Below, piece after piece: positions 6,608 through 23,202 of a stretch of DNA of 64,000 nucleotides (the first letter of the stretch is position 1; every line of letters begins with the position of its first letter). A program made the translations under genes and the position numbers. Origin of the DNA: Patescibacteria group bacterium (GTDB taxonomy: Bacteria; Patescibacteriota; Microgenomatia; UBA12405). The stretch covers positions 10,810 through 74,809 of the forward strand of contig JAHIPV010000020.1 of NCBI GenBank assembly GCA_018902845.1, read 5' to 3'. The notes below the pieces were generated by a model, which was not told where the DNA came from, searched no databases, and worked only from the letters and a program-made list of their open reading frames with translations.

Positions 6608-6635
6608 GCGGGCGACCGCAAGGGTCGCCCCTACA
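6608..6635. repeat. Family-A hairpin repeat GCGGGCGACCGCAAGGGTCGCCCCTACA
   Basis: Perfect 8-bp stem GGGCGACC/GGTCGCCC around a GCAAG loop. Four copies in the window; this one overlaps the 3' end of GT4 6631..7833. Confidence 0.7.
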
Positions 6636-7833: not shown

Positions 7834-7836
7834 GTT

Positions 7837-8491: not shown

Positions 8492-8548
8492 TTCAATAAA
8501 TCTAAAATCTATCCACCACAGGCGGACTGAAGAATTTCTAAATAAATT

Positions 8549-9703
8549 CTAGACTTGTTTATATTTTAGTATATTTTTTCTTTTTTTAAGCATTTTGGGG
8601 AGATTTAGAATAATTTGTCCATAAGTAGTGATTAGGCTGGTTGGAAGAATATAAACAGATTTTAGCTTGTAAATTTTTATAGTTTGTTTTATTAAGCCAG
8701 AAAGATTGCGGAGGCGCTCTATAATAATTGGAAATAAATTATTTAGGATTTCTTTTTTGGAGTAATTTTTTATGATGATATAAAACCAGTTTTTGGCATC
8801 CATACGATTTCTAAAATTACCCATTTTAGAGCTGGTGGCGCCACCGATGTGGTAAGAAATTGCTTGGGGGATAAACAGAGTTTTATATTTTAAGTTATGC
8901 AAACGAAGAGCCAGGTCAACATCTTCTTCGTAAGCAAAAAAATCTGGATCAAACATGCCGATTTTTAAGAGTGTAGCTTTGTGATAGCAAACGATAGAAG
9001 CGGAGCTTCCCCAAACGAAATATGATGCGTCATTCTGAGACGAAGTCGAAGAATCTTTTTGTTGACTTTGATTCCGACGAGATTCTTCGTTGGCACTCAG
9101 AATGACGGGTTTTCCGTTGTCGATGTTGAGGGCTTTGCCTGAAATAAAAAATTTGAGTCCCCTGCTTTCTATCTTGGTACCGTTTTTATTTAGAACAGTG
9201 CCAAAAAAAGTAACAATTTTTGGATTTTTGTTGGTTCTTATAGCCAGAGAAATATGCTTGAACCAGTTTTTATCAATAGTCAAATCGTTATTGCAGATAA
9301 TTACATGATTGTATTTGGCTTTTAAAATTCCTTGGTTGACGGCTTTGGCAAAACCAAAGTTTGAAGAATTCTGGATGATTTGATAAGAAATGTCATTCCG
9401 AGTGGAACGAAGTGGAATCGAGGAATCTCTTGACTTGTTCAAGTTTCTCGCTTTGCGAGAATTCTGAGATAAACTCAGAGATCCCTCGACTTCGCTCGGG
9501 ATGACAGAGGGAGTATTTGTGATGATGGTTTCGAATGTTTGAATACTGTTATCAGTGGAGGCGTTGTCAACCAAAATAATTTCAAAATTTTTGATTTTGG
9601 CCAGTTTCAGAGATGACAAAAGAGAGTTAAGGCAATTAGGTAAAAATTTAGCGCCATTTAAGTTAGGAATGATGATGGAGACGGAAAAATCTTGATTTTT
9701 CAA
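8549..9703 (-). CDS. Glycosyltransferase family 2
   Basis: FSVSIIIPNLNGAKFLPNCLNSL ... IILVDNASTDNS. Two family-B repeats are inserted in frame. Confidence 0.8.
   Translation of the reverse strand: MKNQDFSVSIIIPNLNGAKFLPNCLNSLLSSLKLAKIKNFEIILVDNASTDNSIQTFETIITNTPSVIPSEVEGSLSLSQNSRKARNLNKSRDSSIPLRSTRNDISYQIIQNSSNFGFAKAVNQGILKAKYNHVIICNNDLTIDKNWFKHISLAIRTNKNPKIVTFFGTVLNKNGTKIESRGLKFFISGKALNIDNGKPVILSANEESRRNQSQQKDSSTSSQNDASYFVWGSSASIVCYHKATLLKIGMFDPDFFAYEEDVDLALRLHNLKYKTLFIPQAISYHIGGATSSKMGNFRNRMDAKNWFYIIIKNYSKKEILNNLFPIIIERLRNLSGLIKQTIKIYKLKSVYILPTSLITTYGQIILNLPKMLKKRKNILKYKQV
9037..9117. repeat. Family-B repeat inside the GT2 CDS, with inverted termini CGTCATTCTGAG / CTCAGAATGACG
   Basis: GCGTCATTCTGAGACGAAGTCGAAGAATC ... 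GAGATTCTTCGTTGGCACTCAGAATGACGG. Confidence 0.65.
9391..9507. repeat. Family-B repeat (~115 bp) inside the GT2 CDS
   Basis: TGTCATTCCGAGTGGAACGAAGTGGAATCGAGGAATCTC ... GATCCCTCGACTTCGCTCGGGATGACAG. The 5' module is nearly identical to 1071-1100. Confidence 0.65.
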
Positions 9704-9826
9704 ATTTCTAATTTCAAATTTCTAATTTTTAAACTAATTTTCTCCCTTTGGGTGACTTTGTTTACATGATTGCGCGCCCAAAAAAACATTACAGCGGTAA
9801 TTTGATAGTTCTGATTTTGGTAATTT

Positions 9827-10297
9827 TTAGATTTTATTTGGTAGATTAATTTTGTCTCCGACTTTTAGATTTAGTTTTTGGGCTTCACCGGCGTTTAATT
9901 CAATGACATAAAGGGAGAGAGTGGGGCAACTGTATCGTTTTAGTTGAAAAGCCGAAGTGTTTGGCTGGATTGGTGCTGTATGAATGGCAGTAATGTTTTT
10001 GTTTTCATCCAAAAAAATTATGTCAAGAGGAATTAGAGTGTTTTTCATCCAAAAAACATGATAATCAGGTTTTTTAAAAACAAAAAGCATGCCACAATTA
10101 GAACAAAGGCTTTTTCTGTCTGATAAGCCCTTGGCTCGCTGAGGAACGGTTTGAACAATTTCCAGTTTGTAGTTTTGATTTTTGATATTAACTTTTATTT
10201 TGTCGAGTTTTTGGGCTTTTAATATAGAAATGAGATAAAAAATAGAACACAGGATGGTGATTACTAAAGCTATTATTAAGAATTTTTTGATTGCCAT
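9827..10297 (-). CDS. DUF192-family protein (COG1430-like), secreted or membrane-anchored
   Basis: N-terminal hydrophobic segment and a conserved-looking core MLFVFKKPDYHVFWMKNTLIPLDIIFLD. Confidence 0.55.
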   Translation of the reverse strand: MAIKKFLIIALVITILCSIFYLISILKAQKLDKIKVNIKNQNYKLEIVQTVPQRAKGLSDRKSLCSNCGMLFVFKKPDYHVFWMKNTLIPLDIIFLDENKNITAIHTAPIQPNTSAFQLKRYSCPTLSLYVIELNAGEAQKLNLKVGDKINLPNKI

Positions 10298-10298
10298 T

Positions 10299-11690
10299 TT
10301 AGATGATTAGTTTATCTTGTTTAATTAAGAATATATTGTTTTTTTGTTTGGTTAAATCTAACAGTTTTTGGGTGAAACCGGATTTTGATAGTAATATGTA
10401 TTTTTCTTTTTTATAGTTTTTATTTAAATCAAGATTTTTGATTTTTTCTCTTAATTGCTTAAGTGTGTTGATGCCAACTTTTTTGTTTGACCATTTGGAT
10501 TCTATAAAAGCAATTTCGTTTTTAAGAGAGTTAGTGCCAATATTGTCAATCTCTGTTTCATTGTGCCAAAATCTACCAATTTTTTCAAAATTACCTATTT
10601 TTTTTGAGTATTGATTTATTATTTCCGGAGCGATTCTTTGGTAGTTCTCTTGGGTAATAGCCGGAAAATAGATTTTTAGTTTTGATTTAATTAAGTTGAT
10701 GTTTCCCAGTTCTATCTCTTGGCGATAAGGAAGAACAAAATTAAACCAAAAATTTACGAATTGATCTTTAATCCTATATATTCCCTTTCTTGGTTTTTGA
10801 GGTTGTTTTTCTGTAATTGGTATTTCTTTTTCTATAAGACCAAGATTTTCGAGTACAAAGAGATATTTATGTATAATTGTTTTTTTTAGGCCTGTTTGTT
10901 CGATAATATCGGAAATTTTATTTCTCTTAAAAGCAAGAGACTTTAGGATACTATAATAATTTTTTGGTTCTCTCAATTCTTCTTTTAGTAGAAAATCAAT
11001 TTCTTCATATAGAGGTGAGTTTTTGTTTAGTATTTCTTTTTCGATTGCTTTTTGTAGTTGAGTGTATTTTGAAAGTTTGTTTAGGTATTCAGGGTTCCCT
11101 CCTGTTATAGAAAAAAATGATAGAAAATTTGGGAATTTTAGTTTGGGGAAAAATTTTTTGGATTGGTAAAAATTTAATGGTTTGAGATGTATTTGGCCGG
11201 TTCTTCTTCCAAAAAGCGGGGCTTTTTCTGATAATGTTTCATTTATCATCATGCCGAAGCTGGAGCCGCAGAGTATTAGTTTGATATTTTTATTTCTTTT
11301 TAATTTTTCATCCCAGTATTGTTGAAAAATGGAACTTAATCCTGGTTGAGAGGAAACAAAATAAGGGTATTCATCGAAGGCTATGATGGTTTTTTTCTTT
11401 GTATTTCTGATAAGAAAATTAAAAAAATCATCCCAAGATTTAAATGGTTGATTTTCTAAAAGTGGTTGTTTGAATTTTGTAGCGCAGGTTTCTGATAATT
11501 GTTGTAGATTGTCTTTGTTGCCAACTTGACGGCCAAGAAAATAAATATAGTTTTTATTTTTGCAAAAATGTTTAATTAACTCTGTTTTTCCTACTCTTCG
11601 TTTTCCGTAAATTATAATCAATGAGGCGTTGTTGTTGGAGAATTCTGATTTTAGAAAAGATGTTTCTTGTGTTCTGTTTATAAATTTCAT
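10299..11690 (-). CDS. AAA+ ATPase (archaeal-type ATPase domain, DUF234-like C-terminus)
   Basis: Walker A LIIIYGKRRVGKTEL and Walker B IIAFDEYPY. Confidence 0.6.
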   Translation of the reverse strand: MKFINRTQETSFLKSEFSNNNASLIIIYGKRRVGKTELIKHFCKNKNYIYFLGRQVGNKDNLQQLSETCATKFKQPLLENQPFKSWDDFFNFLIRNTKKKTIIAFDEYPYFVSSQPGLSSIFQQYWDEKLKRNKNIKLILCGSSFGMMINETLSEKAPLFGRRTGQIHLKPLNFYQSKKFFPKLKFPNFLSFFSITGGNPEYLNKLSKYTQLQKAIEKEILNKNSPLYEEIDFLLKEELREPKNYYSILKSLAFKRNKISDIIEQTGLKKTIIHKYLFVLENLGLIEKEIPITEKQPQKPRKGIYRIKDQFVNFWFNFVLPYRQEIELGNINLIKSKLKIYFPAITQENYQRIAPEIINQYSKKIGNFEKIGRFWHNETEIDNIGTNSLKNEIAFIESKWSNKKVGINTLKQLREKIKNLDLNKNYKKEKYILLSKSGFTQKLLDLTKQKNNIFLIKQDKLII

Positions 11691-11723
11691 AGTCTACTTA
11701 TAAATAGTCTACTTACAAGTAGA

Positions 11724-13004
11724 CTATTTGTCAAGATGTTTTACCAGATTATTTATTATTTTATCCCATGTATGGTTTTGTTTTATATAGTTATAGCCGT
11801 TTTGGGAAAGTTTACGGTAGAGCTTGGGATTATTTAATAGTTTTTGGATTTGTTTGATCAAATCATTTAGTGAGTTTTTTTTGAATATCAGTCCCCCATT
11901 GGATTTATTTATTAATTCTTTGACCGGTGGAATATTAGCGCCGATTACCGGTTTTTGGCGGGCCATGGCTTCTATAAAAGTAAGGCCAAAACTTTCATGA
12001 ATGGAGGGATTGACCAAAATGGTGCAATTGTCTAAGTAGTACTTTAGGGTTTTGGGGTTATAGCGCTTGGGTGTAATAGTAATTTTTTGGCGGATATTTT
12101 TGGGGATATTGTTCAAAAGTTTTTGGATTTTGGGATAGTATAAAGTTTTTTGACCTGCTATTGTCAGGGTTAGACTTGGATATTTAATTGACAGTTTTTC
12201 AAAGGCTTGGATTAGTAGTTCAATGCGTTTGTGGGCGGAAAAATTACCAAGAAATAAAATAACTGGATTGTTCGGGCGACCGTAAAGGTCGCCCCTACAG
12301 TAGACTGGTTTTAAAAATGATTTGTCGATGCCGGCGCCGAGGGGTAAAAATTTTGATTTGAGGATATGATATTTTTTGGAAAGATAGTTGGCTTCGTGTT
12401 GGGTTAGGGTCCAGATTAAATTGGAATTTTGGAGGGTTTTTATAAGAGGTTTGCGAGAAAAGGCAAGGTCGAATTGATGAAAACAGGGAAGAGTCAACAG
12501 TTTAGATTTGGTGAGCTTCTGAACAAGTTTTGAATATAAAACTATGGTGGTTGGAAGAGGGCCGGCTATAACCCAGTCGGGTTTGAATTTATGAATTTTG
12601 ATTAGAGCTTTTATAAATGGAATGAATTTGAAAATAGGGCCGAGTTGAAGGATGCCAAGAAGATTTAAAAAAAAAGATCCTTCACTGTGTTCAGGATGAC
12701 GTGGAGACAGTTTTTGAGAAATTAATGAGAGTAGTTTGAGGGGGCGACGAAGGTGTTTGTAGACGGGAAGGCGGATTGTTGGACGACTGCTCCGATGCTC
12801 ACTGTGTTCGAGCGGAGTGCCTTTGGCAGATGATTGGATGACTGGTGATTTAGATGTGACAAAATCATCGGTTGAATAACAGTTGGTAGTCAGGACCATG
12901 ATTTGATGGCCTTTTTTGCCAAGGTACTCCCCTGTTTTGGCTATGATTTTTGATCCGCCGTCAACAGCGGGAGGGAAAATGTGGGTTAGGAGTAAGATTC
13001 GCAT
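11724..13004 (-). CDS. Glycosyltransferase family 4
   Basis: VNPSIHESFGLTFIEAMARQKPVIGAN. It carries a family-A copy (CRGDLYGRPNNP) and family-B-like inserts (PRHPEHSEGS). Confidence 0.8.
   Translation of the reverse strand: MRILLLTHIFPPAVDGGSKIIAKTGEYLGKKGHQIMVLTTNCYSTDDFVTSKSPVIQSSAKGTPLEHSEHRSSRPTIRLPVYKHLRRPLKLLSLISQKLSPRHPEHSEGSFFLNLLGILQLGPIFKFIPFIKALIKIHKFKPDWVIAGPLPTTIVLYSKLVQKLTKSKLLTLPCFHQFDLAFSRKPLIKTLQNSNLIWTLTQHEANYLSKKYHILKSKFLPLGAGIDKSFLKPVYCRGDLYGRPNNPVILFLGNFSAHKRIELLIQAFEKLSIKYPSLTLTIAGQKTLYYPKIQKLLNNIPKNIRQKITITPKRYNPKTLKYYLDNCTILVNPSIHESFGLTFIEAMARQKPVIGANIPPVKELINKSNGGLIFKKNSLNDLIKQIQKLLNNPKLYRKLSQNGYNYIKQNHTWDKIINNLVKHLDK
12273..12304. repeat. Family-A hairpin (degenerate: CGGGCGACCGTAAAGGTCGCCCCTACA) inside the GT4 CDS
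   Basis: Same stem as the other A copies, with a variant loop. Confidence 0.6.
12675..12702. repeat. Family-B fragment inside the GT4 CDS
   Basis: GATCCTTCACTGTGTTCAGGATGACG. A related degenerate copy lies at 12787-12826. Confidence 0.5.
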
Positions 13005-13070
13005 TAATCGATGCTATAAAGTATATATTTTATATTACTATGTGGAATCGATTGAAGTGAATTTCCTGTC

Positions 13071-13120
13071 TTGACACGTCTTCGTATACTTTAGATAATA
13101 TAAAGTATATGAAGACGTAT
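13071..13120 (+). promoter_or_regulatory. Putative abiEi promoter and operator: TTGACA-N17-GATAAT overlapping a 17-bp inverted repeat
   Basis: The arms CGTCTTCGTATACTTTA and TAAAGTATATGAAGACG differ by one mismatch and flank the -10 element and the ATG. An extra half-site ATAAAGTATAT lies at 13014-13030. Confidence 0.5.
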
Positions 13121-13702
13121 GATTTAGCATTATTAACTAAAGAGTTGGCAGAATCGGGAATATTGTTTTTTGATTTAAAAACTTTAAGAGATATTTTGAA
13201 TATTAAAAATGAAGATTCTTTTTTTGATGTAATAAAAAGATTGAGACGATCCGGAGTTATAAAAAAGATTGAACGAAACAAATATTTATTAAAAGGCAAG
13301 CTGGAGTTTAATGATTTTGCTTTGGCGAATTTTATTTATAGTCCTTCTTATGTTTCTTTTGAATCAGCTTTGAATTTTCATGGTATTTTGTCTCAATTCC
13401 CTTTGGAAATAAGTTCTGCTACCACTAAAAATACAAAGAAAAAATCAGTTGAAGGAAGGCACTTTTTTTATTGCCAGATTAAGAAGAGTTTGTTTTGGGG
13501 TTATGTTAAAAAAGATTCTTATTTGATGGCTGTGCCGGAAAAAGCATTGATAGATCAATTTTATTTATATACAAAAGGTTTGAAATCGTTTGGGGTTGAT
13601 GAATATGATTTATCTTTAATTAACAAGAGAGTTTTAAAGAAATATTTAATACGAATACCTGAAATTAAAAATAAATTGTTAAAAATTTGCGGGTTTTTAT
13701 GA
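13109..13702 (+). CDS. abiEi: AbiEi-like antitoxin / transcriptional regulator (type IV TA, abortive infection AbiE)
   Basis: It lies upstream of and overlaps a clear AbiEii-family gene, has the size expected for AbiEi, and has an inverted-repeat operator in its promoter. Confidence 0.55.
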   Translation: MKTYDLALLTKELAESGILFFDLKTLRDILNIKNEDSFFDVIKRLRRSGVIKKIERNKYLLKGKLEFNDFALANFIYSPSYVSFESALNFHGILSQFPLEISSATTKNTKKKSVEGRHFFYCQIKKSLFWGYVKKDSYLMAVPEKALIDQFYLYTKGLKSFGVDEYDLSLINKRVLKKYLIRIPEIKNKLLKICGFL

Positions 13703-14469
13703 TTGATAAAACTCAATTAAACAGTTTAGTAAAAAAATTTAAAATAAATGAAACTACTGTACTGAGGGAATATTTACAGGTTTGGTTTTTACAAAGATTA
13801 TATTCTGAATCAAAAAGTAAAAATATTTATTTTAAAGGAGGCACTGCCATTCATTTGATTTATAAGGCGCCTCGTTTTTCTGAAGATTTGGATTTTACGG
13901 TTAATATGGATGAAAAAGAGTTTTTGAAGTTTATTGAAAAGTTTTTTTCTGCTTTATCCGGGCTTGAACCTGTCAGTTTTAAACAAAGAAAAGTCTTGGC
14001 CGGTTTTAGATTTTTACTAACTTGCAAGTCAAGTGTGGTGAGTTATCCTGTTTTTATAAACCTTGATTTTTCTTTTAGGGAAATGGCATTGAAACCGGAA
14101 AAGTCGATTATAGAAACTGATTTTCCAATTATTTTTAATTCATATATTTATCATTTGTCTGCCGAGGAGATGTTGGCGGAAAAAGTAAGAGCTATTTTGA
14201 GCAGAAAGAAAGGAAGAGATATTTATGATTTGTGGTATTTATTGAATTTGGATACGAAATTTAACCGTGAATGGATTTTAAAGAAATTAGAATATTACAA
14301 AATGAAAAGTGTAGACATGGAAGAAATTGTGGGGCGAATAAATGGATTTGGGGCAAAACAATTTGTTTTGGATATGAGGCCTTTTGTTCCAATAAATGAA
14401 AAAGACAAGTTAGAATCTCTTTATGCTTATATTTGTGACTATATAAAGAGGAAACTAAAGGATAAGTAG
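13687..14469 (+). CDS. abiEii: AbiEii/AbiGii-family nucleotidyltransferase toxin (DUF1814)
   Basis: Motif YFKGGTAIHLIYKAPRFSEDLDF characteristic of the family; 16-bp overlap with the upstream gene. Confidence 0.75.
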   Translation: MRVFMIDKTQLNSLVKKFKINETTVLREYLQVWFLQRLYSESKSKNIYFKGGTAIHLIYKAPRFSEDLDFTVNMDEKEFLKFIEKFFSALSGLEPVSFKQRKVLAGFRFLLTCKSSVVSYPVFINLDFSFREMALKPEKSIIETDFPIIFNSYIYHLSAEEMLAEKVRAILSRKKGRDIYDLWYLLNLDTKFNREWILKKLEYYKMKSVDMEEIVGRINGFGAKQFVLDMRPFVPINEKDKLESLYAYICDYIKRKLKDK

Positions 14470-14471
14470 AT

Positions 14472-15389
14472 ATGTTGAAGAGGATTTTGAAATCAAGGTT
14501 AATTAAGATTTTGTTTTCGGGGGTATTGCTTTATTTGGTATTTAGAAAAATAGACCTGGGAAGTTTGTTAATGGAAATGAGAAGGGTACCGTGGTGGTTT
14601 TTATTGGCAATGGTTTTGTATGGTTTTTTGTGCGCTTTAATTGGGGCTTTAAGGTGGAGTTTGCTTTTATTAAAAAAGCCAAGATTTAAGGATATTTTAT
14701 TTTTTACCAAAATTATTTATATTGGGTCTTTTTATAGTTTGTTTTTGTCTTCCAGTGTAGGCGGCGACCTAGTTAAATGGTTGCCACTTTTAAAGAAGTA
14801 TCCAAAATTGTCAAAAGTCAAAATTGCCAGTTCGGTTTTGGTGGATAGGATTATTGGCATGTCTGCTTTGGTTTTTGGAGCATTTGGGGCGGTTTTGTTG
14901 GGGAAATTTTTGAAGTTTGATTTTCCGGATTATTTGTTTTGGCTGTTTTTGGTTTTGTTTGTTGGAGTGTTGGGTTTTTATGTTTTGATTTGGTTTTTTG
15001 ATCTTGATAATTTTTTTAGCAGATTTTCAGTTTTAAGAAAGTTGTCCGAGGTGGTTGATTTTTTGAAAAATGAGAATAAAAAAAGAATTATTTATGGTTT
15101 TTTGATTTCTTTGTTTGGGGTGATGATTTGGAATTTGCCAATGTGGTTTTATAGTTTGGTTTTTGATGCAGGGATTGGGTTGTTGCCGATTTATATATTT
15201 ATGCCAATTATCAGTTTGATTTTGATTTTACCGGTGTCAGTGGCCGGGTTTGGAGCCAGAGAAGCTTTGTTTTTGTATTTTTTTGGTAAGCTGGGAATTG
15301 AGAGTGAAAAGATTTTGTTGGTATCGACTTTTACGGGAGTGTTTGGTGTTTTGGTGGCATTGGTTGGCGGGGTTTGGGGGATGGTGTAG
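14472..15389 (+). CDS. Flippase-like polytopic membrane protein (UPF0104 / lysyl-phosphatidylglycerol-synthase TM-region family)
   Basis: 305 aa with about 8 TM helices. The N-terminus RLIKILFSGVLLYLVFRKIDL is typical of this family. Confidence 0.55.
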   Translation: MLKRILKSRLIKILFSGVLLYLVFRKIDLGSLLMEMRRVPWWFLLAMVLYGFLCALIGALRWSLLLLKKPRFKDILFFTKIIYIGSFYSLFLSSSVGGDLVKWLPLLKKYPKLSKVKIASSVLVDRIIGMSALVFGAFGAVLLGKFLKFDFPDYLFWLFLVLFVGVLGFYVLIWFFDLDNFFSRFSVLRKLSEVVDFLKNENKKRIIYGFLISLFGVMIWNLPMWFYSLVFDAGIGLLPIYIFMPIISLILILPVSVAGFGAREALFLYFFGKLGIESEKILLVSTFTGVFGVLVALVGGVWGMV

Positions 15390-15442
15390 GACAAATTTAA
15401 GGTTGTACTTGAAATTTGTCCAAAATTGTTTTAGAATAAATC

Positions 15443-16588
15443 ATGTTTAAAAGAACTTTGTCATCTTTGATAGTTAAAGCCAGTAAGCAGTATTCTGTAA
15501 TTTCTATTACCGGGCCCAGACAGTCGGGTAAAACTACTTTAAGTAAAGGTTTGTTTTCTGATTTCGCTTATTTTAATTTAGAAAATCCCTTAACAAGAGA
15601 GTTTGCGAAAAATGATCCGAAAGCTTTTTTGGCTCAAGACAAAAAAATGGTTATAGACGAGATTCAGCGTGTGCCAGAACTTTTTTCCTACCTTCAAGTG
15701 ATAGTTGATAATGAAAAAAAAAGAAAATTTGTTATTACCGGTTCGCAAAATTTTTTAATTTCAGAAAAAATTTCTCAAACCTTGGCTGGCAGAATAGCTA
15801 TTTTTAGACTTTTGCCTTTGTCTTTAAAAGAATTGCAAAATAACAAGATTGCTCCGGTTGATATTTATAAACTTTTGGTTAAGGGTGGTTATCCGAGATT
15901 ATATGATGAGAAATTGGATTTTTCGGAATGGTATGCAAATTACATTGAAACTTATCTTCAAAGAGATGTGAGAGAAATCAAAGAGATTAAGAATTTATCT
16001 GATTTTCAAACCTTTTTGGGTTTGTGCGCAGGTAGGACCGGACAAATATTAAATCTTTCTTCTTTGGCTAATGATGCAGGAGTTTCTGTGCCTACAATTA
16101 AAGAATGGTTATCGGTTTTAGAGGCTAGTTATGTAATTTATAGATTGCAACCTTTTTACGAAAATTTTAATAAAAGGCTTATCAAGTCTCCAAAAATTTA
16201 TTTTTACGATACGGGTTTGGCTTGTGCTTTGCTTGGTATTAAGACTGAAAAAGAATTGGCAAAACATCCATTAATGGGTAATATTTTTGAAACTTTTGTT
16301 GTTAGTGAATTGCAAAAACAAAATTTACACAGGCAGATGAGATTAAATTTTTATTATTTGAGAGATAAACAAGGAAATGAAGTAGATCTTTTATACAAAA
16401 CAGGGCAAAAACTGCATCTTTTGGAGATTAAGTCTGCCCAGAGTTTTAGGCTGGATTTTGTTAATGCCTTTGATTATTTTGCTAAAATTTCCGGTAAGGA
16501 AACAGAAAATCAAATAATTTATGGAGGGGATCTTAAGCAAAAAAGGAGTAATTTTGTCTTATTGCCATGGAGGGAGATGTGTTTGTAG
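15443..16588 (+). CDS. AAA+ ATPase with DUF4143 C-terminal domain
   Basis: Walker A ITGPRQSGKTTL and Walker B MVIDEIQ. It is a paralogue of 17891..19021. Confidence 0.75.
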   Translation: MFKRTLSSLIVKASKQYSVISITGPRQSGKTTLSKGLFSDFAYFNLENPLTREFAKNDPKAFLAQDKKMVIDEIQRVPELFSYLQVIVDNEKKRKFVITGSQNFLISEKISQTLAGRIAIFRLLPLSLKELQNNKIAPVDIYKLLVKGGYPRLYDEKLDFSEWYANYIETYLQRDVREIKEIKNLSDFQTFLGLCAGRTGQILNLSSLANDAGVSVPTIKEWLSVLEASYVIYRLQPFYENFNKRLIKSPKIYFYDTGLACALLGIKTEKELAKHPLMGNIFETFVVSELQKQNLHRQMRLNFYYLRDKQGNEVDLLYKTGQKLHLLEIKSAQSFRLDFVNAFDYFAKISGKETENQIIYGGDLKQKRSNFVLLPWREMCL

Positions 16589-16633
16589 GAGACGGATGGG
16601 GTTGGTTTTTAAAAACAGTTGCTATAATAAATT

Positions 16634-16825
16634 ATGGTTGATTTAAAAAGTGGGTTTTATAAAACTTTTGCCAATTTACCATTGGGAGTAAGAGATGGGA
16701 TAGTATTGGTAATAGACGGTCAGCCGACAACTTGGAATGTGATCAAATTGGAGGTTGATACAGACAGTAAAACATCAAAGAAGGCCTTAAAATTGTTAGA
16801 TGAGTTGAGATTAATTAAGAAATAG
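16634..16825 (+). CDS. Small hypothetical protein
   Basis: 63-aa ORF immediately upstream of the octamer array. Weak support. Confidence 0.3.
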   Translation: MVDLKSGFYKTFANLPLGVRDGIVLVIDGQPTTWNVIKLEVDTDSKTSKKALKLLDELRLIKK

Positions 16826-16940
16826 ATAATTAGACAACTAGACAACTAGATAACTAGATAACTAGATAACTAGATAACTAGATAACCGGATAACCGGATA
16901 ACCGGATAACCGGACAACTAGATAACCGGATAACCGGATA
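16823..16940. repeat. Periodic 8-bp tandem array, about 14 units (AACTAGAT / AACCGGAT / GACAACTA)
   Basis: Sequence reads AGATAATTAGACAACTAGACAACTAGATAACTAGATAACTAGATAACTAGATAACCGGATAACCGGATAACCGGATAACCGGACAACTAGATAACCGGATAACCGGATAA. The same octamer family occurs at 47113, 47763, 49489 and 58071. Confidence 0.8.
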
Positions 16941-16945
16941 AAAAC

Positions 16946-17182
16946 ATGATGAAAAAAGGTAAAAAAATAAATATAAACGAAAAAGAAATTGTAATGGCTC
17001 AAGTCAGAACTTATGATAGTGATTTTGAATTAAGTATTGGAAGTTTTGGAACTTTTTCAAAAAAAGAATTGCTGGAAAATATCGAAAAAGAAAGTGAAGT
17101 TGGCAAGCAAATTGTTGAAATTCAGATGAATTATTTGAGGGATTTGGTCAGTGGAGATATTTACAAAATTTTGGAAGATTAA
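16946..17182 (+). CDS. Small hypothetical protein, translationally coupled to the downstream caspase-like gene
   Basis: 78-aa ORF whose stop overlaps the next start in a TAATGG junction. Confidence 0.4.
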   Translation: MMKKGKKININEKEIVMAQVRTYDSDFELSIGSFGTFSKKELLENIEKESEVGKQIVEIQMNYLRDLVSGDIYKILED

Positions 17183-17811
17183 TGGTTTTGATAACCCGAC
17201 CCAATCATGATTTGGCTACAAGGTATCTTTATCATTTTAGTAAGAAAGTAGTTGATTACTGTCAAAAAAAATCTATTTCCTTGGTAGATTTAAAAGGCAA
17301 AAAGGCCAATAGGAAATTATTTTTGAGTTATGTCAAGAAAGGAAAATTAAAGTTTGTTTTTGTAAATGGACATGGAAATGATGATATTGTGTGTGGTTAC
17401 GATAATGAAGTAATAGTTGACAAATACGAAAAGGATTTTAAAAAAACTATTTTTTATTGCAGGAGTTGTCGATCGGCAAAGATATTGGGGAAGAAATTGG
17501 TCAAAGGTGGAATCAGCGCATTTGTCGGTTATACAAAAGATTATTATGTATTGATGTCCAGAAAGAAGAATACCAATCCCCTGTCTGATAAGACTGCCAG
17601 ATTATTTTTAGACCCTTCAAATTTGGTGGCCATGTCGATATTAAAAGGAGATAATGTTGGCGAAGCAGACAAAAAGTCAAAAAAATTATTGAAGAAAAAT
17701 ATTAAAGAAGTGATTGGTAGCAAGATGAGATTTAAAGATGATGTGGTGGCCTATTTGCTTCATGATTTAAAAGCCCAAGTAGTCATTGGTGACAAAAGCG
17801 CGAAGTTGTAG
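17182..17811 (+). CDS. Mini caspase-like cysteine peptidase (clan CD-like His-Cys dyad)
   Basis: KFVFVNGHGNDD matches the hydrophobic-strand-plus-(S/N)HG pattern, and KTIFYCRSCRS matches QACRG-like. The His and Cys are about 40 residues apart, as in caspases. Confidence 0.4.
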   Translation: MVLITRPNHDLATRYLYHFSKKVVDYCQKKSISLVDLKGKKANRKLFLSYVKKGKLKFVFVNGHGNDDIVCGYDNEVIVDKYEKDFKKTIFYCRSCRSAKILGKKLVKGGISAFVGYTKDYYVLMSRKKNTNPLSDKTARLFLDPSNLVAMSILKGDNVGEADKKSKKLLKKNIKEVIGSKMRFKDDVVAYLLHDLKAQVVIGDKSAKL

Positions 17812-17890
17812 GTGGGAGAGTAGTGTGAAATGGGATAAGAAATTGGTAGAATGGACTTGACAACTCCATTCTACATTGTAAAATGGAGTT

Positions 17891-19021
17891 GTGTACACTA
17901 GAATTTTAAAGCCGGTAAAAGATAAATGTTTCTTTTTGTTTGGTCCACGCGGTACAGGCAAGACCACTTGGGTCAAGACAACGTATTCGGATGCTATATA
18001 TTTGGATTTGTTGCGATCAGAATTATTTACCAGGTTAATATCTGATCCCGGCAGATTAGAACAGTACATTTTGCCTAATTATCAAGGATATGTGGTGATC
18101 GACGAAGTTCAACGGGTGCCAGAGTTGCTTAATGAAGTTCATCGTTTAATTGAAGATAGAAAAATTAAATTTGTTTTGACCGGTAGTAGCGCTCGAAAAA
18201 TTCGTCGCGGTGGTTATAATTTGTTGGCGGGAAGGGCATTGTCATATCAAATGTATCCATTGACGGCAATAGAAATGGGCGATGATTTTAATTTAGGTAG
18301 AAGTGTGATTCGAGGGATGTTGCCAATGGCGCAAGTTGATGGTTATGGTGAGTACTTGAAAAGTTACATTCAAACTTATTTAGAACAAGAAATAATGCAA
18401 GAAGGATTGACTCGAAATTTGTCGGCTTTTGCCAGATTTTTAGAAGTGGCCAGTTTTTCTCAAGGACAGTTGTTAAATATGGCCTCCATATCTCGAGATG
18501 TGGGAGTAGGACGCAAAGTGATAAGTGGTTATTTTACTATTTTGCAAGATTTGCTGATTGGATATTTGATCAAACCGTTTACCAAGAGGTCAAAAAGAAG
18601 GTTGGTGTCGCATGCAAAGTTTTATTTTTTTGATTGTGGAGTATATCGGGCGATTAGGCCAACCGGACCGCTTGATTCCGGTGATGAGGTGAGTGGAATA
18701 GCAACGGAGTCTTTGGTGTTGAGCCAGTTGATGGCAAATAATGATTTGTTAAAACTAGGGTACGAAGTAAACTATTATCGAACTGCAACCGGGGTGGAGG
18801 TAGATTTTGTGTTGTATGGCAAGAGAGGTCTGGTGGCAATTGAAGTCAAAAAAAGTGGCAAATTTAAAGAGGGAATGATTAGTGGACTAAAGAGATTTAA
18901 GCTTGATTATCCTGAAGCTAAGTTGTATTTATTGTATGGAGGTAGCCAGGAATTATATGTCAATGGGGTGACGGTGATGTCTTTGGAGAAGGCACTGAAA
19001 GAGATGGATAAGTGGTTGTAG
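17891..19021 (+). CDS. AAA+ ATPase with DUF4143 domain
   Basis: LFGPRGTGKTTW and VVIDEVQ. Confidence 0.75.
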   Translation: MYTRILKPVKDKCFFLFGPRGTGKTTWVKTTYSDAIYLDLLRSELFTRLISDPGRLEQYILPNYQGYVVIDEVQRVPELLNEVHRLIEDRKIKFVLTGSSARKIRRGGYNLLAGRALSYQMYPLTAIEMGDDFNLGRSVIRGMLPMAQVDGYGEYLKSYIQTYLEQEIMQEGLTRNLSAFARFLEVASFSQGQLLNMASISRDVGVGRKVISGYFTILQDLLIGYLIKPFTKRSKRRLVSHAKFYFFDCGVYRAIRPTGPLDSGDEVSGIATESLVLSQLMANNDLLKLGYEVNYYRTATGVEVDFVLYGKRGLVAIEVKKSGKFKEGMISGLKRFKLDYPEAKLYLLYGGSQELYVNGVTVMSLEKALKEMDKWL

Positions 19022-19047
19022 AGGTAAGGATTAGGGACAATAAAGAT

Positions 19048-20109
19048 TTAGGGAGTTTGTTTGAAAACAAAATAATTGTCGACCGAAAATTGGCATTGAT
19101 CTATAAAGATTGATTTAAAAAGATCGAGATTGTTTTGTTCGTAAAATAACAGAGTAGCTTGTTTGTATAGTTTTTCGTCAACACTTCTAAATGGAATTGG
19201 AAAGTGATTGTGGGCGAGCAAGATGGCATTGCCGATAATACGACCGGTTCTTTTGTTGCCATCTTCAAAGGGTTGAATATAACTAATTAAGATCATACTT
19301 AGCAAAGATTTGGTAAAAATATTATCAGTAGAGTTGATTAACCGGCACATTTTTTGCATGCTTTCTCTAATTTGGTATTGATTGTCTAGAGGTTTGTATT
19401 TGGTGCCGGTAATGCCTACCAGGGTTTTGCGTAAGTTTTTGGAAACATTGAGTTTGTAGGTAATTATTCTGTGAATTTCTTGAATGGTGGGCAGGTCTGT
19501 TTTTTTAAAATATTTTTTTTGGTTGAAAATCAGATCTATGGCATCTTTGTGGTTTAGAAGCATGATGGTTTCGCTTTTTTGTTTACCTTTAGCTTCGATG
19601 CCTTTTTTTAACAGGAGTTCAGTGTCTAACAGGCTGTATGTGTTGCCTTCGATGAGGCTAGATTTCCAACTTAATTCAATGGTTATTCTTTCGATTTCTT
19701 TTTGAATTATGGTTGGTGATAACTTTTTGAAATTTTGCAGATATTTTTTTTGAAGTTTAAGTAATTGTTTTGTTTCGTCTTTGTTGAAGATATCAGAATT
19801 TTTTAGAGTTGAAAAAATTGAAAAATTAAAGTTTGGCAGTATGTTTCGTGAATCAATCGGTATAGAAAAATATTTGTCAATATCTATAGGTCTGAATAAT
19901 AATCCCTTGTTTGTAAGTTTGTAGGTTGTTTTTGGACCATGACCAATACGAAGCAAATAGTTTTTGGAAAGTAGAAGAGACAGATCTCTTGATAGAGTTA
20001 TGGTTGTAATTTCTTTATCTAAGAGATTTGAGAGTTGTTTTGGGGATAATGGTTTATCCTGGGAAAAGACGGATAATATTTTGGTTTGTCTGTGATTAAG
20101 TTGATTCAT
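19048..20109 (-). CDS. Fic/Doc-family protein with N-terminal winged-HTH-like region; its motif has Gln in place of the catalytic His
   Basis: The motif reads IQPFEDGNKRTGR where the canonical Fic motif is HPFx(D/E)GNGR. The His is replaced by Gln and it has NKR as in Doc. Confidence 0.65.
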   Translation of the reverse strand: MNQLNHRQTKILSVFSQDKPLSPKQLSNLLDKEITTITLSRDLSLLLSKNYLLRIGHGPKTTYKLTNKGLLFRPIDIDKYFSIPIDSRNILPNFNFSIFSTLKNSDIFNKDETKQLLKLQKKYLQNFKKLSPTIIQKEIERITIELSWKSSLIEGNTYSLLDTELLLKKGIEAKGKQKSETIMLLNHKDAIDLIFNQKKYFKKTDLPTIQEIHRIITYKLNVSKNLRKTLVGITGTKYKPLDNQYQIRESMQKMCRLINSTDNIFTKSLLSMILISYIQPFEDGNKRTGRIIGNAILLAHNHFPIPFRSVDEKLYKQATLLFYEQNNLDLFKSIFIDQCQFSVDNYFVFKQTP

Positions 20110-20250
20110 AATGCAATCATATCATCTTAATTAAATAATCATATCATTTTAATTAAATAATCATATCATTTTGATATGATTATTGAGGGTAAATGATGTG
20201 ATTTGGGAAATTTTTTTTGGAGAAGATAGGGGGATAGTATAATTATAAGA
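20110..20250. promoter_or_regulatory. Divergent intergenic region with direct repeats (TAATTAAATAATCATATCATTTT x2-3) and a palindrome AATCATATCATTTTGATATGATTA
   Basis: Read directly from the sequence. It lies between the divergent Fic and GT-C genes. Confidence 0.4.
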
Positions 20251-21828
20251 ATGAAGGTTAAAACCGGTAATTTGTTTTTTGGTTGTTGTGTATTTTTTTT
20301 GTGTTTGGTTTATTTTTTGCTTGCTTTTAAAAATCCTTTTAAAACAAATTCATTGGTATCTAATTTAGAGCCTTATCCCGATACTTTGTATTATTCTGTG
20401 CCTGCTTGGAATTTGGTGAATGGCAGAGGTTTTAAAATGTCAGCATATGGTCATGAGATTAAGAAAATTACACCACCGATTTATAGTTTGTATTTAATCC
20501 CCTTTTTTGCTTTATTTGGAGATATCAGATCGTATTATTTTGCTAATTTATTATTGTCTTTTGTTTCGATATTGGTTTTTGCAGGAATTATAAGAAAAGT
20601 TTTTGGTAATAGTTTGTTTAGTTTGGCGATTGTTTTGTTTTTGGGATTTTTGTTTGTGACTAATTATTATTTTTATAATTTACCTTCTTTGTTGATGGCA
20701 GAGAATTTGACCTTGTGTGTACTGTTGATATTGGCTTTCCTTTTGTTTGTTGATATTAGTCTTAAGTCTGTATTGATTTCAAGTTTTTTGGGGGTGTTTT
20801 TTGGCTTAATTAAATTTTCTAATTTATCTTTATCTTTGGTGTTTTTGTTTTTGTATACAGTAAAAGTTTTTGTTGGAAACAAAAATAAAAAATTTAAATT
20901 TTGGTATGTGGGGTTTTTACTTTTATTTTCATTATTTTTTATATTTTATTTAATCAGTTCGGGAATTTTTAGTGGGCACGTGAATTTAAACAAAGAAACC
21001 GGTTTTTCTTTTGGATATTTTATAAAAAATTTGAGTTTTTATTTATCTGCTTTAATGGGGAAGGACACCAGATATTTGTGGTATACAAAAAAATTAATGG
21101 CAAGAAGTGTGGTTGTATTGGCTTTTTGCGGTGTGGTAGCAGGGTTATTGATGAAAAAATTTAGAGTTTTGGTTTTAAAATTGCTGTTTTTTTTATTTGT
21201 TCCTGTTATTTGTGTTTGTTTTTTTTATTATGCTGATGCCAGATATATTTTTATGGTTTTGCCCTTGGTATTAATTTTAATCGGTTTTTTGTTTTTTGTA
21301 TTAATGAAGAAATTTGGAGCAAGGCTAAGTTATTTACTGATGTTTTTACTGATGGTTTTTTATGTTTTTGAAAAGGATGAAGGAGAGAGAAGAATTGTGT
21401 TTTTTAAGAAGCAGGTTGGATTGAATTTTAGACACAAAGAGGATCCGTGGAATTATTTGGCAATTGAGAATTTTAATAATTATTTTAAAAATAAAAATAA
21501 GGATGTTTATTTAGGAAGTTTTTTGCCGCCTTTTTATGTTGATATTTTTTCCAATCATAATTATGAGTATTTGCCAATATTTGAAAAACAGGAATTTTCC
21601 AGCGGACAAAAGAAAGTTTTAGACAAGTTTTATTCCGGTGAATTGGTTGAATATTACAAGAGTTTGGTTAAAAATGAAAAAAAAGTATTTGTATCTAATT
21701 ATTATGTGAACAATAGCGTGGGGTGGAGAAAAGTTTTTGATGATTTATTGGCAAACTTTGATACAGAATTAGTAAGGGATGGTTGTTTGGGAAGTTGTAA
21801 TATTTATAAATTGAGTTTGAAAAGGTAA
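20251..21828 (+). CDS. Polytopic membrane protein, GT-C-fold glycosyltransferase-like (ArnT/PMT-like)
   Basis: 525 aa with at least 10 TM helices. Its first extracytoplasmic loop reads PYPDTLYYSVPAWNLVNGRGF. Confidence 0.5.
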   Translation: MKVKTGNLFFGCCVFFLCLVYFLLAFKNPFKTNSLVSNLEPYPDTLYYSVPAWNLVNGRGFKMSAYGHEIKKITPPIYSLYLIPFFALFGDIRSYYFANLLLSFVSILVFAGIIRKVFGNSLFSLAIVLFLGFLFVTNYYFYNLPSLLMAENLTLCVLLILAFLLFVDISLKSVLISSFLGVFFGLIKFSNLSLSLVFLFLYTVKVFVGNKNKKFKFWYVGFLLLFSLFFIFYLISSGIFSGHVNLNKETGFSFGYFIKNLSFYLSALMGKDTRYLWYTKKLMARSVVVLAFCGVVAGLLMKKFRVLVLKLLFFLFVPVICVCFFYYADARYIFMVLPLVLILIGFLFFVLMKKFGARLSYLLMFLLMVFYVFEKDEGERRIVFFKKQVGLNFRHKEDPWNYLAIENFNNYFKNKNKDVYLGSFLPPFYVDIFSNHNYEYLPIFEKQEFSSGQKKVLDKFYSGELVEYYKSLVKNEKKVFVSNYYVNNSVGWRKVFDDLLANFDTELVRDGCLGSCNIYKLSLKR

Positions 21829-21839
21829 AATTTTAAATA

Positions 21840-22010
21840 TGAAAATTTTTGTTGTAGTGCCGAGTTGGAATGAGGGAAAAAGAGTAGTCAAGACAGTCAG
21901 AAAAGTTTTAAAAAATACAAAAAATAGCGTGATAGTTGTTGATGATGGTTCCAGTGATAATTCTTTTGTTTTGCTAAAAAAGATTTTGTCTGCCCTTTTT
22001 TGTTTTGCGT
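21840..22010 (+). pseudogene. Truncated GT2 glycosyltransferase 5' fragment
   Basis: Encodes MKIFVVVPSWNEGKRVVKTVRKVLKNTKNSVIVVDDGSSDNS, then runs into a stop after about 56 codons. Confidence 0.45.
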
Positions 22011-22245
22011 AGTTGATTAAGAATTTGATTAGTTTTGTACCAAGACCTTTTCTTCGTGCGTTCTTGAGGATAGCAATACGTTCCAGTTTCATCTTGTTAT
22101 TTGGGTATCTTATTCTGGCGCAACCGACAGCTTTGTTTTTGTAATAAAGGATGACATGTTCGGAGGTGTCGTCTAATCCGTCCTTCTCTTTTTTGAGGGG
22201 ACAATGCCTTGATCTTTAACAAATACTTCTCTTCTGATTTTTAGT
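21975..22245 (-). pseudogene. GNAT acetyltransferase remnant lacking a start
   Basis: Hand translation gives ...EHVILYYKNKAVGCARIRYPNNKMKLERIAILKNARRKGLGTKLIKFLINYAKQKRADKIFF, which includes GNAT motif A. There is a stop upstream with no Met, and the predicted ORF 21769..22092 continues antisense into the GT2 fragment. Confidence 0.45.
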
Positions 22246-22422
22246 ATTTGGTTGATTTCACTTTGGTTTTTAGTAATGTGTATGTTGATCATGTTGGTTT
22301 TTTTGAGGTTGTTTTGATTTAACGTTGTTTATGCTATCAAAGTTTGTATGTTTTGAGAAGCATAAACAAGAATTTGGGTGTATTTGTCAGAGGAGCAAAT
22401 ATTGTGGTAGTATAATTTCATT

Positions 22423-23202
22423 ATGAAAGTGATTATTTTGTGTGGTGGAATGGGAACGAGGTTGAGGGAAGAGACTGAGTTTAGGCCGAAGCCGATGGTG
22501 TTTATTGGTAATAAGCCGATGCTCTGGCATATTATGAAAATATATGCACATTATGGTTTTAACGAGTTTATATTAGCATTGGGATATAGGGCTGATTATA
22601 TAAAGCGGTTTTTTTTGGACCAAAAGGCATATACCTCTGATTTTATTTTAGATACTAAAACATGTAAAAGAAGATTTTTTTTGCAGAGCAGGAATAATGT
22701 TGATGATTTTAAGATAACCTTTGTGGATACGGGTTTGGAGACGTTGGTAGGTGAGAGAGTCTTGAGGTGTCGGAGGTATGTTCCGGATGCCGATAGAAAT
22801 TTTATGGTAACTTATGGTGATGGAGTTGCAGACGTAAACATTAAAAAGTTGCTTGATTTTCATAAGAAACAAAAGACTTTGGGTACGATTTTGGGTATTC
22901 ATTCAAGGTCAAAATTTGGAGTATTAAAGGTTGATAAAAATAATTTAATTAAGATGTTTTCTGAAAAACCGGTAACAAATAATTGGGTTAATGGGGGTTT
23001 TATGGTTTTCAAGAAGGAGGCCTTCAATTATTTTAAACTAGGAATTTCGGAACATCCGGTGCTAAAATCTTTGGCAAAAGAAGACCAGTTGTCTGTTTAT
23101 AAACATGAAAGTTTTTGGTTTGCTATGGATACTAATAAAGAGATGGTAACATTAAATAATTTGTGGTTGTTAGACAAACCTCCATGGAAAATATGGAAAT
23201 AA
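22423..23202 (+). CDS. rfbF: Glucose-1-phosphate cytidylyltransferase
   Basis: MKVIILCGGMGTRLREETEFRPKPMVFIGNKPMLWHIMKIYAHYGFNEFILALGYRADYIKRFF, a full-length match to the RfbF/DdhA pattern. Confidence 0.85.
   Translation: MKVIILCGGMGTRLREETEFRPKPMVFIGNKPMLWHIMKIYAHYGFNEFILALGYRADYIKRFFLDQKAYTSDFILDTKTCKRRFFLQSRNNVDDFKITFVDTGLETLVGERVLRCRRYVPDADRNFMVTYGDGVADVNIKKLLDFHKKQKTLGTILGIHSRSKFGVLKVDKNNLIKMFSEKPVTNNWVNGGFMVFKKEAFNYFKLGISEHPVLKSLAKEDQLSVYKHESFWFAMDTNKEMVTLNNLWLLDKPPWKIWK

Follow-up and report, generated by a model that had tools for sequence, protein, structure and literature searches.

A glycan locus of a Patescibacteria bacterium as a probable mosaic of conserved genes and small toxin-antitoxin and defence-type cassettes, with a three-gene module around a predicted caspase-fold protease

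When toxin-antitoxin (TA) and defence-type genes interrupt the glycan locus of a bacterium of the candidate phyla radiation (CPR), did they arrive as one island or as separate pieces? The question is raised by a block of 7.2 kb (positions 13005-20250) within a 64-kb stretch, hereafter the window, of a contig from a Patescibacteria (CPR) bacterium. The block is bounded by a GT4 glycosyltransferase gene (11724-13004, minus strand) and a gene for a multi-pass membrane protein of 525 amino acids (aa) (20251-21828, plus strand). An original prediction, made from the DNA letters, had read the block as a single plus-strand defence or addiction islet with an AbiEi/AbiEii pair, a UPF0104 flippase-like membrane protein, two AAA+DUF4143 ATPases, three small open reading frames (ORFs), a caspase-like protein and a Fic protein. 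We find that the defence-type content stands, as AbiE, the DUF4143 proteins and a Fic-like protein, whereas the single islet does not: the flippase-like gene, LPG_synthase_TM, and a trio made up of two small genes (S1 and S2) and the caspase-like gene (mini-caspase) belong to the backbone shared with related genomes. The block is thus likely a mosaic, in which a conserved cell-envelope glycan backbone carries separate TA or defence-type cassettes of one or two genes at its junctions.

Backbone genes and the junctions between them

Proteins of the window were scanned with Pfam, NCBIfam, PADLOC and PHROG models, and loci of relatives were fetched around homologues of the 525-aa flank protein and of the 209-aa mini-caspase (numbered loci with the prefix L; L006 is from Shapirobacteria and L009 from Parcubacteria). 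One of these loci, L020, is collinear with window positions 1233-17811 over 13 genes that keep the same order at 38-70% identity, running GT2, DUF192 and GT4 on the minus strand and then LPG_synthase_TM, S1, S2 and mini-caspase on the plus strand, without ATPase_2/DUF234, AbiE or the first DUF4143 gene. LPG_synthase_TM and the trio are 38-70% identical to their L020 counterparts, much as the flanking glycosyltransferases are (46-70%). GT4 orthologues that are 44-46% identical occur in L006, L009, L010 and L020, and in all four LPG_synthase_TM directly adjoins GT4 in divergent orientation; DUF192, GT4 and LPG_synthase_TM are contiguous in L006, L009 and L010. The 525-aa protein also has orthologues in L006 (46-47%), L009 and L010, where it is preceded by genes for MetK, an epimerase, UDP-glucose dehydrogenase and a Polysacc_synt flippase, and the L010 interval before it holds the trio as well. 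In L104 the trio is followed directly by GT2. Because LPG_synthase_TM and the trio are collinear in L020 and L010, with backbone-like divergence, we regard these four of the ten genes in the block as backbone in this lineage. The original prediction had held that conserved synteny among relatives would speak against an acquired island; such synteny was found for LPG_synthase_TM and the trio (L020), whereas the defence-type genes were missing from the relatives.

AbiE, the DUF4143 ATPases and the Fic-like gene are missing at the same slots in L020, L006, L009, L010 and L104, and the ATPase_2+DUF234 gene is missing between DUF192 and GT4 in L006, L009, L010 and L020. Other lineages carry different genes of this kind at these junctions. 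After the trio, L022 has a non-orthologous AbiE pair (29-32% identical) and L103 has a DUF4143 gene together with SNase, and in L019 an NTase/NTase_sub_bind pair lies upstream. The glycan locus thus serves as a landing zone, in agreement with the earlier claim that such genes settle in surface-polysaccharide loci.

The features of the block and its borders are as follows (coordinates, strand, description; a dot marks features without strand, and exponents are E-values).

10299-11690, minus: ATPase_2+DUF234 gene (helix-turn-helix (HTH) and Mrr-like nuclease); Pfam ATPase_2 9.6e-28, DUF234 2.5e-16, PADLOC PDC-S27 2.5e-53
11724-13004, minus: GT4 glycosyltransferase, left backbone flank; Glycos_transf_1 / GT4 matches
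13071-13118, plus: abiE promoter-like site and inverted repeat, putative AbiEi operator; site search and repeat search
13109-13702, plus: abiEi, predicted antitoxin and transcriptional repressor, 197 aa; PADLOC AbiEi 2.2e-28
13699-14469, plus: abiEii, predicted DUF1814 nucleotidyltransferase toxin, 256 aa; Pfam AbiEii 2.1e-31, PADLOC 1.3e-34
14472-15389, plus: LPG_synthase_TM / UPF0104 flippase-like membrane protein, 305 aa; Pfam 5.3e-32
15387-16591, plus: DUF4143 cassette #1, with hairpin (15389-15421), promoter-like site (15409-15437) and gene (15443-16588, 381 aa)
16634-16825, plus: S1, first trio gene, 63 aa; gene calls and homology
16823-16934, dot: tandem array of the octamer TAGATAAC, 14 copies; Tandem Repeats Finder
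16946-17182, plus: S2, second trio gene, 78 aa; gene calls and homology
17182-17811, plus: mini-caspase, predicted stand-alone clan-CD (caspase-hemoglobinase) fold, 209 aa; AlphaFold2 (AF2) and Foldseek
17857-19021, plus: DUF4143 cassette #2, with promoter-like site (17857-17884) and gene (17891-19021, 376 aa, GTG start)
19048-20109, minus: Fic-fold protein with N-terminal winged HTH (wHTH), 353 aa; Pfam Fic 1.2e-12
20115-20203, dot: repeat-rich region upstream of the Fic-like gene, putative operator; repeat searches
20251-21828, plus: 525-aa multi-pass membrane protein, right backbone flank; orthologues in relatives

Based on these comparisons, the backbone would consist of GT2, DUF192 and GT4 on the minus strand, divergently LPG_synthase_TM, S1, S2 and mini-caspase, and then the membrane protein and sugar-nucleotide genes. 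Five cassettes would have entered it. GT4 and LPG_synthase_TM are parted by abiEi-abiEii, and LPG_synthase_TM and the trio by AAA_14+DUF4143 #1; AAA_14+DUF4143 #2 stands behind the trio, with the divergently oriented wHTH-Fic-like gene behind it; and, outside 13005-20250, DUF192 is parted from GT4 by the ATPase_2+DUF234 gene, which begins 2 nucleotides (nt) from the DUF192 gene. The last of these splits the same locus beyond the borders that the original prediction had drawn, and the divergent Fic-like gene departs from its description of a plus-strand block. Neither did the GT-C label given to the gene at 20251 find confirmation, as neither Pfam nor NCBIfam models matched the 525-aa protein at thresholds relaxed to E<=1. 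A sigma-70-like site search over 9700-22500, scored as matches out of 12, placed promoter-like sites before abiE, DUF4143 #1 and DUF4143 #2, and the fourth cassette within the block has a repeat-rich region before its Fic-like gene. All ORFs of the block are intact. The defence-type cassettes are of known or candidate kinds, and the scan with defence models that had been proposed recovered AbiE, PDC-S01 twice and SoFic/PDC-S04 in the block, plus PDC-S27 outside it.

AbiE, ATPase and Fic-like cassettes

The AbiE pair that had been read from the sequence is present, AbiEii being supported by Pfam and AbiEi by a PADLOC match that spans residues 38-180. Antitoxins of the AbiEi kind combine an N-terminal wHTH with a C-terminal domain. 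The window's AbiEi scored 19.5 bits (1.1e-3) against Pfam AbiEi_4, under the cut-off of 25, and 38 bits (1.2e-9) against NCBIfam TAA_AbiEi, under the cut-off of 150. The abiEi stop and the abiEii ATG overlap in ATGA at 13699-13702, forming a bicistronic operon. AbiE toxins are DUF1814 nucleotidyltransferases with a motif I/II of the form hG[GS]x~15DhD that includes an Arg, a motif III K..R and a motif IV +DxxD (PMC3985639), and the AbiEii translation retains FKGG…PRFSEDLDF as motif I/II, EKVRAILSR as motif III and RDIYD as motif IV. Judged by its family, AbiEii would be a GTP-binding nucleotidyltransferase toxin.

Upstream, an inverted repeat with arms of 21 nt (13076-13096 and 13098-13118; 90% complementary, 1-nt gap) overlies both the abiEi ATG and the -10 box of a promoter-like site, TTGACA-17-GATAAT at 13071-13099, which with 11 of 12 matches is one of the region's two best. 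The repeat is therefore real as a sequence feature (13076-13118), as the original prediction had it, and is a putative AbiEi operator; binding by AbiEi we infer. AbiEi would restrain AbiEii and repress the operon through this repeat over the -10 box and start codon. The LPG_synthase_TM gene, whose Pfam match bears out the flippase-like membrane protein proposed before, starts (14472) only 2 nt past the abiEii stop (14469). Because of this spacing it is probably co-transcribed with abiE, from the abiE promoter.

The cassette resembles the AbiE systems of Streptococcus agalactiae and Lactococcus lactis (Dy et al. 2014, PMC3985639) in its abiEi-abiEii order and 4-nt ATGA overlap, known AbiE in its DUF1814 nucleotidyltransferase with motifs I-IV, and the autoregulated S. 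agalactiae abiE operon (PMC3985639) in its inverted repeat over the promoter. It differs from them in that its AbiEi is short (197 aa) and falls under the Pfam and NCBIfam cut-offs, the arms of its repeat lie 1 nt apart and extend into the start codon, and a housekeeping membrane-protein gene follows abiEii after 2 nt and is probably co-transcribed with it. In addition, the host is a CPR bacterium.

The two paralogous AAA+DUF4143 ATPases were likewise found, with strong matches for #1 (Pfam DUF4143 4.4e-52, AAA_14 3.4e-30; PADLOC PDC-S01 1.8e-102) and #2 (Pfam DUF4143 1.2e-29, AAA_14 4.9e-23; PDC-S01 1.4e-53). The two proteins carry the Walker A sequences GPRQSGKTT and GPRGTGKTT, the Walker B sequences VIDEIQ and VIDEVQ and the nuclease-like motifs EVD..LEIK and EVD..IEVK, and Walker A/B and D...ExK motifs could be read off the translations of all three ATPases, the third being ATPase_2+DUF234. 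DUF4143 has been classed as PD-(D/E)xK (PMC3424549). Judged by their families, the three ATPases would couple a P-loop NTPase to a PD-(D/E)xK nuclease-like domain, and they would most likely be single-protein sensors and cleavers of foreign nucleic acid that depend on nucleoside triphosphates. DUF4143 #1 and #2 are only 29% identical, and by this measure they are old paralogues; a tandem or recent duplication of the two genes is ruled out by so low an identity.

A copy of DUF4143 #1 in L103 is 88.7% identical at the aa level and 86% identical at the nt level over exactly 1205 bp (window 15387-16591). The similarity begins 56 nt before the ATG, so that it takes in a hairpin and the promoter-like site at 15409-15437 (10 of 12 matches), and ends 3 nt past the stop. 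The gene lies upstream of the trio in the window and downstream of it in L103, and the L103 mini-caspase, at 70.5% aa and 77% nt identity to that of the window, falls below the identity of DUF4143 #1. Judged by these boundaries, DUF4143 #1 is a discrete 1.2-kb unit that moves on its own. DUF4143 #2 has its own promoter-like site, TTGACA-16-TAAAAT at 17857-17884, with 11 of 12 matches the other of the region's two best. The hairpin at 15389-15421 has a 10-bp stem (GGACAAATTT-N13-AAATTTGTCC), its first base is the last base of the LPG_synthase_TM stop codon, it overlaps the -35 box of DUF4143 #1, and it is retained with the cassette in L103. In that locus the trio and the DUF4143 cassette are separated by an ORF of 202 aa (L103 785-1393), which may be a truncated remnant from cassette insertion, since it matches the N-terminal 168 aa of the 525-aa membrane protein in the window at 50% identity.

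PADLOC PDC-S01 (COG1373-type) and PDC-S27, which the ATPases resemble as single-gene units with a P-loop ATPase and a PD-(D/E)xK-type C-terminal domain, are unvalidated candidates found by their embedding in defence islands (PMC12988326). The window differs from them in holding three copies within 9 kb, one of which is the discrete 1.2-kb cassette with a shifted position relative to the trio.

The Fic protein of the original prediction holds as a Fic domain (Pfam Fic 1.2e-12, 49 bits against a cut-off of 24; PADLOC SoFic 9e-17, PDC-S04 1e-15), but its catalytic His is replaced by Gln. Against NCBIfam SoFic it scored 21.8 bits, below the cut-off of 550. When its motif QPFEDGNKRTGR (QPFEDGNKR) was aligned to HPFIDGNGRTSR of human FICD, Gln fell at the position of the catalytic His; in the same alignment YIHPFIDGNGRTSR pairs with YIQPFEDGNKRTGR. 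The protein thus lacks the canonical AMPylase motif HxFx(D/E)GNGRxxR with its catalytic His. Homologues that are 48-82% identical occur in CPR, archaea, Bacteroidales and Alphaproteobacteria. Of the best 120, 116 share the Q..GNKR motif (QPFxDGNKRxxR), and a Fic protein on a Bacteroides finegoldii plasmid is 50% identical. Because Gln and GNKR are shared by 116 of the 120, the Gln is a subfamily trait and not decay, and we rejected a pseudogene-type lesion on the same ground. We file the window protein, from its sequence, as Fic-fold and not as an AMPylase; it likely belongs to a widespread Fic subfamily with Gln for the catalytic His and a non-AMPylating chemistry. Without the His that is canonical for AMPylation, it would probably catalyze another reaction or only bind a target. 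Upstream of the gene, the stretch 20115-20203 holds 2.6 copies of a 22-nt unit, AATCATATCATTTTAATTAAAT, and an inverted copy (AATCATATCA / TGATATGATT), and these repeats are likely the operator for the N-terminal HTH. The protein shares the Fic fold and the core motif xPFxDGNxRxxR with the Fic/Doc family (FICD/HYPE, SoFic and the Doc kinase), its GNKR resembles the NKR of Doc, and like many bacterial Fic proteins it has a fused wHTH, here N-terminal. It differs from FICD and SoFic in the Gln that its subfamily carries instead of the catalytic His.

The S1-S2-mini-caspase trio

The caspase-like assignment of the original prediction held up for fold and catalytic dyad, and no existing family model matches the protein. 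An AF2 model of the 209-aa mini-caspase, built on an alignment of 26 sequences, reached a mean pLDDT (predicted local distance difference test) of 97.4. Foldseek searches of PDB matched it to the SAVED-CHAT protease (8tl0_C, E 4.8e-5, template-modelling (TM) score 0.60) and gingipain R (1cvr, E 1.9e-4) with probability 1.00 and TM scores of about 0.6, and other matches were caspase-11, the Craspase TPR-CHAT protein, GPI transamidase (GPI8), C11 proteases and separase. The dyad motifs end consecutive hydrophobic strands, NGHG (62-65) behind strand 58-62 and SC96 behind strand 90-94; among 236 distinct members that are 28-78% identical to the window protein, G63, H64, G65, G72 and C96 are conserved in 100% and D136 in 99%. 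By its model, then, the protein has a clan-CD caspase fold with an intact His64/Cys96 dyad, and peptidase activity is predicted. It had no match in Pfam, NCBIfam, PHROGs or PDB sequences, including Peptidase_C14, CHAT, C11, C13 and C25. No match to S1 or S2 was found in Pfam, NCBIfam or PHROGs, and in PADLOC nothing beyond a marginal PDC-S63 match (5.4e-3) was found for the trio. An aminotransferase match (E 0.009) in PDB sequence searches with the trio profiles was judged spurious, and nothing else there was credible. Literature searches returned nothing on the trio.

The mini-caspase shares with clan CD peptidases (caspases, metacaspases/orthocaspases, gingipain R, SAVED-CHAT, Craspase, separase and GPI8) the caspase-hemoglobinase fold and the His-Gly and Ser/Ala-Cys motifs that end consecutive strands, both of which are invariant. 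It differs from them in being a stand-alone protein of about 210 aa without sensor, TPR or prodomain, preceded by genes for two small helix/beta-hairpin proteins. To our knowledge it is the smallest stand-alone caspase-fold protease. A profile search found 2,480 clusters (at 50% identity) of the family at E<=1e-3 and 376 at E<=1e-30, and nearly all of the best 150 matches are 200-220 aa long.

In mini-caspase loci taken from metagenomes, which were scanned with an alignment of eight sequences, and from elsewhere, we found homologues of S1 and S2 directly upstream of the mini-caspase in 73 of the 74 loci with enough sequence (62 clusters at 85% identity). These two are the only small ORFs backed by gene calls and homology, not three as had been listed before. 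S2 and the mini-caspase gene share 1 nt, at stop and ATG. Relatives have no spacer between S1 and S2, which abut or, usually, overlap; in the window the lineage-specific octamer array of 14 copies separates them. The L020 mini-caspase is 58% identical to that of the window. The AF2 model of S2 (three-sequence alignment; pLDDT 82.7) consists of a helix, a beta-hairpin and two further helices and has no significant fold match, the best being prefoldin beta at E 0.23. Compared as profiles, S1 and S2 align over 30 columns of the hairpin-helix region (probability 27%, E 6.6e-4), which is suggestive of paralogy. Arg20 of S1 is invariant. Upstream of S1, a TATAAT box (16600-16636, TTGCTATAATAAATTATG) stops 5 nt short of the ATG, a distance that suggests a leaderless or very short-leader trio transcript.

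From gene order we take the trio to be an operon complete in itself, whose position shifts across the family while its synteny holds in the lineage of the window. It is a widespread, previously undescribed three-gene module, whose named members and gene contexts come from CPR. The operon would be built around a cytoplasmic cysteine protease with an intact predicted dyad, which would act as a proteolytic switch, and S1 and S2 would most likely be the partners of the protease, as inhibitor, adaptor or substrate.

Three-component TA operons of the omega-epsilon-zeta type encode proteins of about 71, 90 and 287 aa. By analogy with these and with toxin-antitoxin-chaperone operons, the trio may be compared to such systems in having three tightly coupled genes (about 63, 78 and 209 aa), in which small acidic proteins precede a larger basic enzyme. 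It differs from them in that it has no sequence or fold relationship to them, and S1 is not basic and has no detectable DNA-binding fold.

Weighing the alternatives, and what the locus may mean

That 13005-20250 as a whole was acquired horizontally, as a single island for defence or addiction that landed in the glycan locus, seems to us very improbable, even though six of its ten genes match defence-type models, the block interrupts glycan genes and the gene order is the same on all contigs shown of this strain (five of the eleven with an identical 209-aa protein) wherever they overlap the block. LPG_synthase_TM and the trio are collinear in L020 and L010 at backbone-level divergence, every cassette has a junction and a promoter-like site of its own, and DUF4143 #1 moves alone. 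Moreover, there is no tRNA in the 64-kb window, no integrase or transposase domain among the proteins of the block (Pfam) and no flanking direct repeat or repeat family around it (repeat search). The proposed check of base composition and codon usage revealed no outlier: GC content of the block genes ranges from 0.27 to 0.39 around a window mean of 0.338 (sd 0.040), and their GC, third-position GC, codon usage and codon distance stay within the spread of the window. We therefore rejected a recent foreign origin on compositional grounds. Several points also count against the mosaic. Composition gives no support for recent transfer of any part, and the contigs shown have no presence/absence polymorphism at strain level, so that the term insertion is drawn from comparison with relatives (46-76% identity), which may instead have lost the genes. 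Synteny of the trio extends over the window, L020 and L010, but conserved flanks are rare across the family, and the trio may itself be a movable module. In another reading, the defence-type genes have decayed to remnants or been domesticated as regulators and no longer serve in defence; AbiEi, for example, would act only as promoter control for LPG_synthase_TM, or Fic would be inactive. The missing catalytic His, the 2-nt spacer that joins LPG_synthase_TM to the abiE operon and the fully ameliorated composition would fit it; we nevertheless consider it improbable, given that no ORF is disrupted, AbiEii keeps its motifs I-IV, the ATPase and nuclease motifs persist as well, the Gln in 116 of 120 homologues marks a functional Fic subfamily, and DUF4143 #1 is strongly conserved (89% aa) relative to its neighbours. 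A mosaic of backbone and separate cassettes remains the likely explanation.

What the trio does bears on how much of this mosaic is defence. It may be a three-component TA or abortive-infection module, with the basic protease as effector and the acidic S1 and S2 as inhibitor and regulator, in which case nearly everything in the block but LPG_synthase_TM would be of defence type; we entertain this only tentatively. It is a tight, self-contained operon with overlapping genes, the acidic S1 and S2 (isoelectric point (pI) about 5-6) contrast with a basic protease (pI 9.3), and the nearest solved folds include the defence proteases SAVED-CHAT and Craspase. Its flanks are rarely conserved even among close members, a flanking gene being shared by 21% of locus pairs at 60-85% mini-caspase identity, 7% at 50-60% and 2% below, and some neighbours are of defence type (Fic/SoFic, PDC-S01, S02, S05, S23, S24, PbeA, and type I and type IIG restriction-modification). 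Most neighbours, however, are ordinary genes: the 145 immediate neighbours cover 156 Pfam families, of which GT1/GT4 occur 6 times, Fic 4, DUF4143 3 and TsaE 3 times. The trio also holds the same slot in the window, L020 and L010 with backbone-like divergence, and S1, with 49% mean column identity in its alignment and 70% identity to L020, is strongly conserved, unlike typical antitoxins. Mini-caspase relatives were found neither in IMG/VR (pattern scan) nor in phage and plasmid collections (tblastn), and the PADLOC match is only marginal. It seems rather unlikely to us that the trio serves CPR as a proteolytic module for housekeeping or regulation, with a functional tie to the biogenesis of envelope glycans or glycoproteins. 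In favour of this, seven of the nine contexts examined first belong to glycan or polysaccharide loci (window, L010, L011, L018, L019, L020, L022), GT1/GT4 are the commonest neighbour families, synteny with LPG_synthase_TM extends over three genomes, and the family is large. Yet GT4/GT1 neighbours are confined to about 6 of the 62 non-redundant loci, the trio also occurs beside cysS/ABC transporter and restriction-modification genes, it is missing from the L006 and L009 glycan loci, and, as read off the sequences, the three proteins have no obvious signal peptides or transmembrane segments and hence no direct access to the envelope. We arrive at a guarded proposal, short of an even chance, that the trio is a new three-component system in which S1 and S2 gate the protease or are cleaved by it, and which moves as a unit and serves as an abortive-infection, addiction or stress switch. 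A role in addiction or abortive infection in particular is conceivable at about that same modest level, and a cellular regulatory role lies somewhere between doubtful and similarly conceivable.

Some further observations concern the window as a whole. GC skew of the plus strand is positive throughout 1-64000 (+0.09 to +0.53 per 1-kb window) and amounts to +0.04 to +0.59 per gene whatever the orientation, an unusually strong asymmetry without a switch across 64 kb; minus-strand genes consequently have C-rich coding strands. Intergenic octamer arrays (TAGATAAC, CGGATAAC or CTGGATTA) occur at 16823-16934, 49490-49542, 58075-58123, 47110-47136 and 47760-47785 and may be a lineage-specific microsatellite near gene starts. 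A family of GC-rich palindromic repeats, GCGGGCGACCGCAAGGGTCGCCCCTAC, is found at 6604, 7232, 12268 and 48726, with further GC-rich palindromic repeats at 1301, 3460 and 3770 and also at 12672, 49777, 49816, 61899 and 63506. Several copies lie within ORFs and are translated in frame, in which they resemble Rickettsia palindromic elements. By alignment, GT4 has lineage-specific in-frame GC-rich inserts (SPRHPEHSEGSFF, YCRGDLYGRPNN), and GT2 (8549-9703) has a repeat-derived insert of 41 aa that is missing in its L020, L010 and L006 orthologues. Between two glycosyltransferases, a DUF5647 gene (86 aa, 7837-8097, minus) overlaps a DUF7718 gene (136 aa, 8081-8491, minus); this pair has no tblastn match in L020, where the interval has two uncharacterised ORFs, and may be another TA-like insertion.

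For ultra-small CPR genomes, the locus means that defence and TA genes need not come as islands; here they come as promoter-bearing cassettes of one or two genes, one of which, abiE, probably has a backbone gene under its transcription. The finding matters for the reading of neighbourhood-based searches for defence islands in CPR, and also for how phage-receptor loci and defence genes are connected. Within the block, it is the trio that most deserves follow-up: a large, unmodelled minimal caspase-fold family with two obligatory small partners is a candidate for studying how clan-CD proteases are regulated in prokaryotes.

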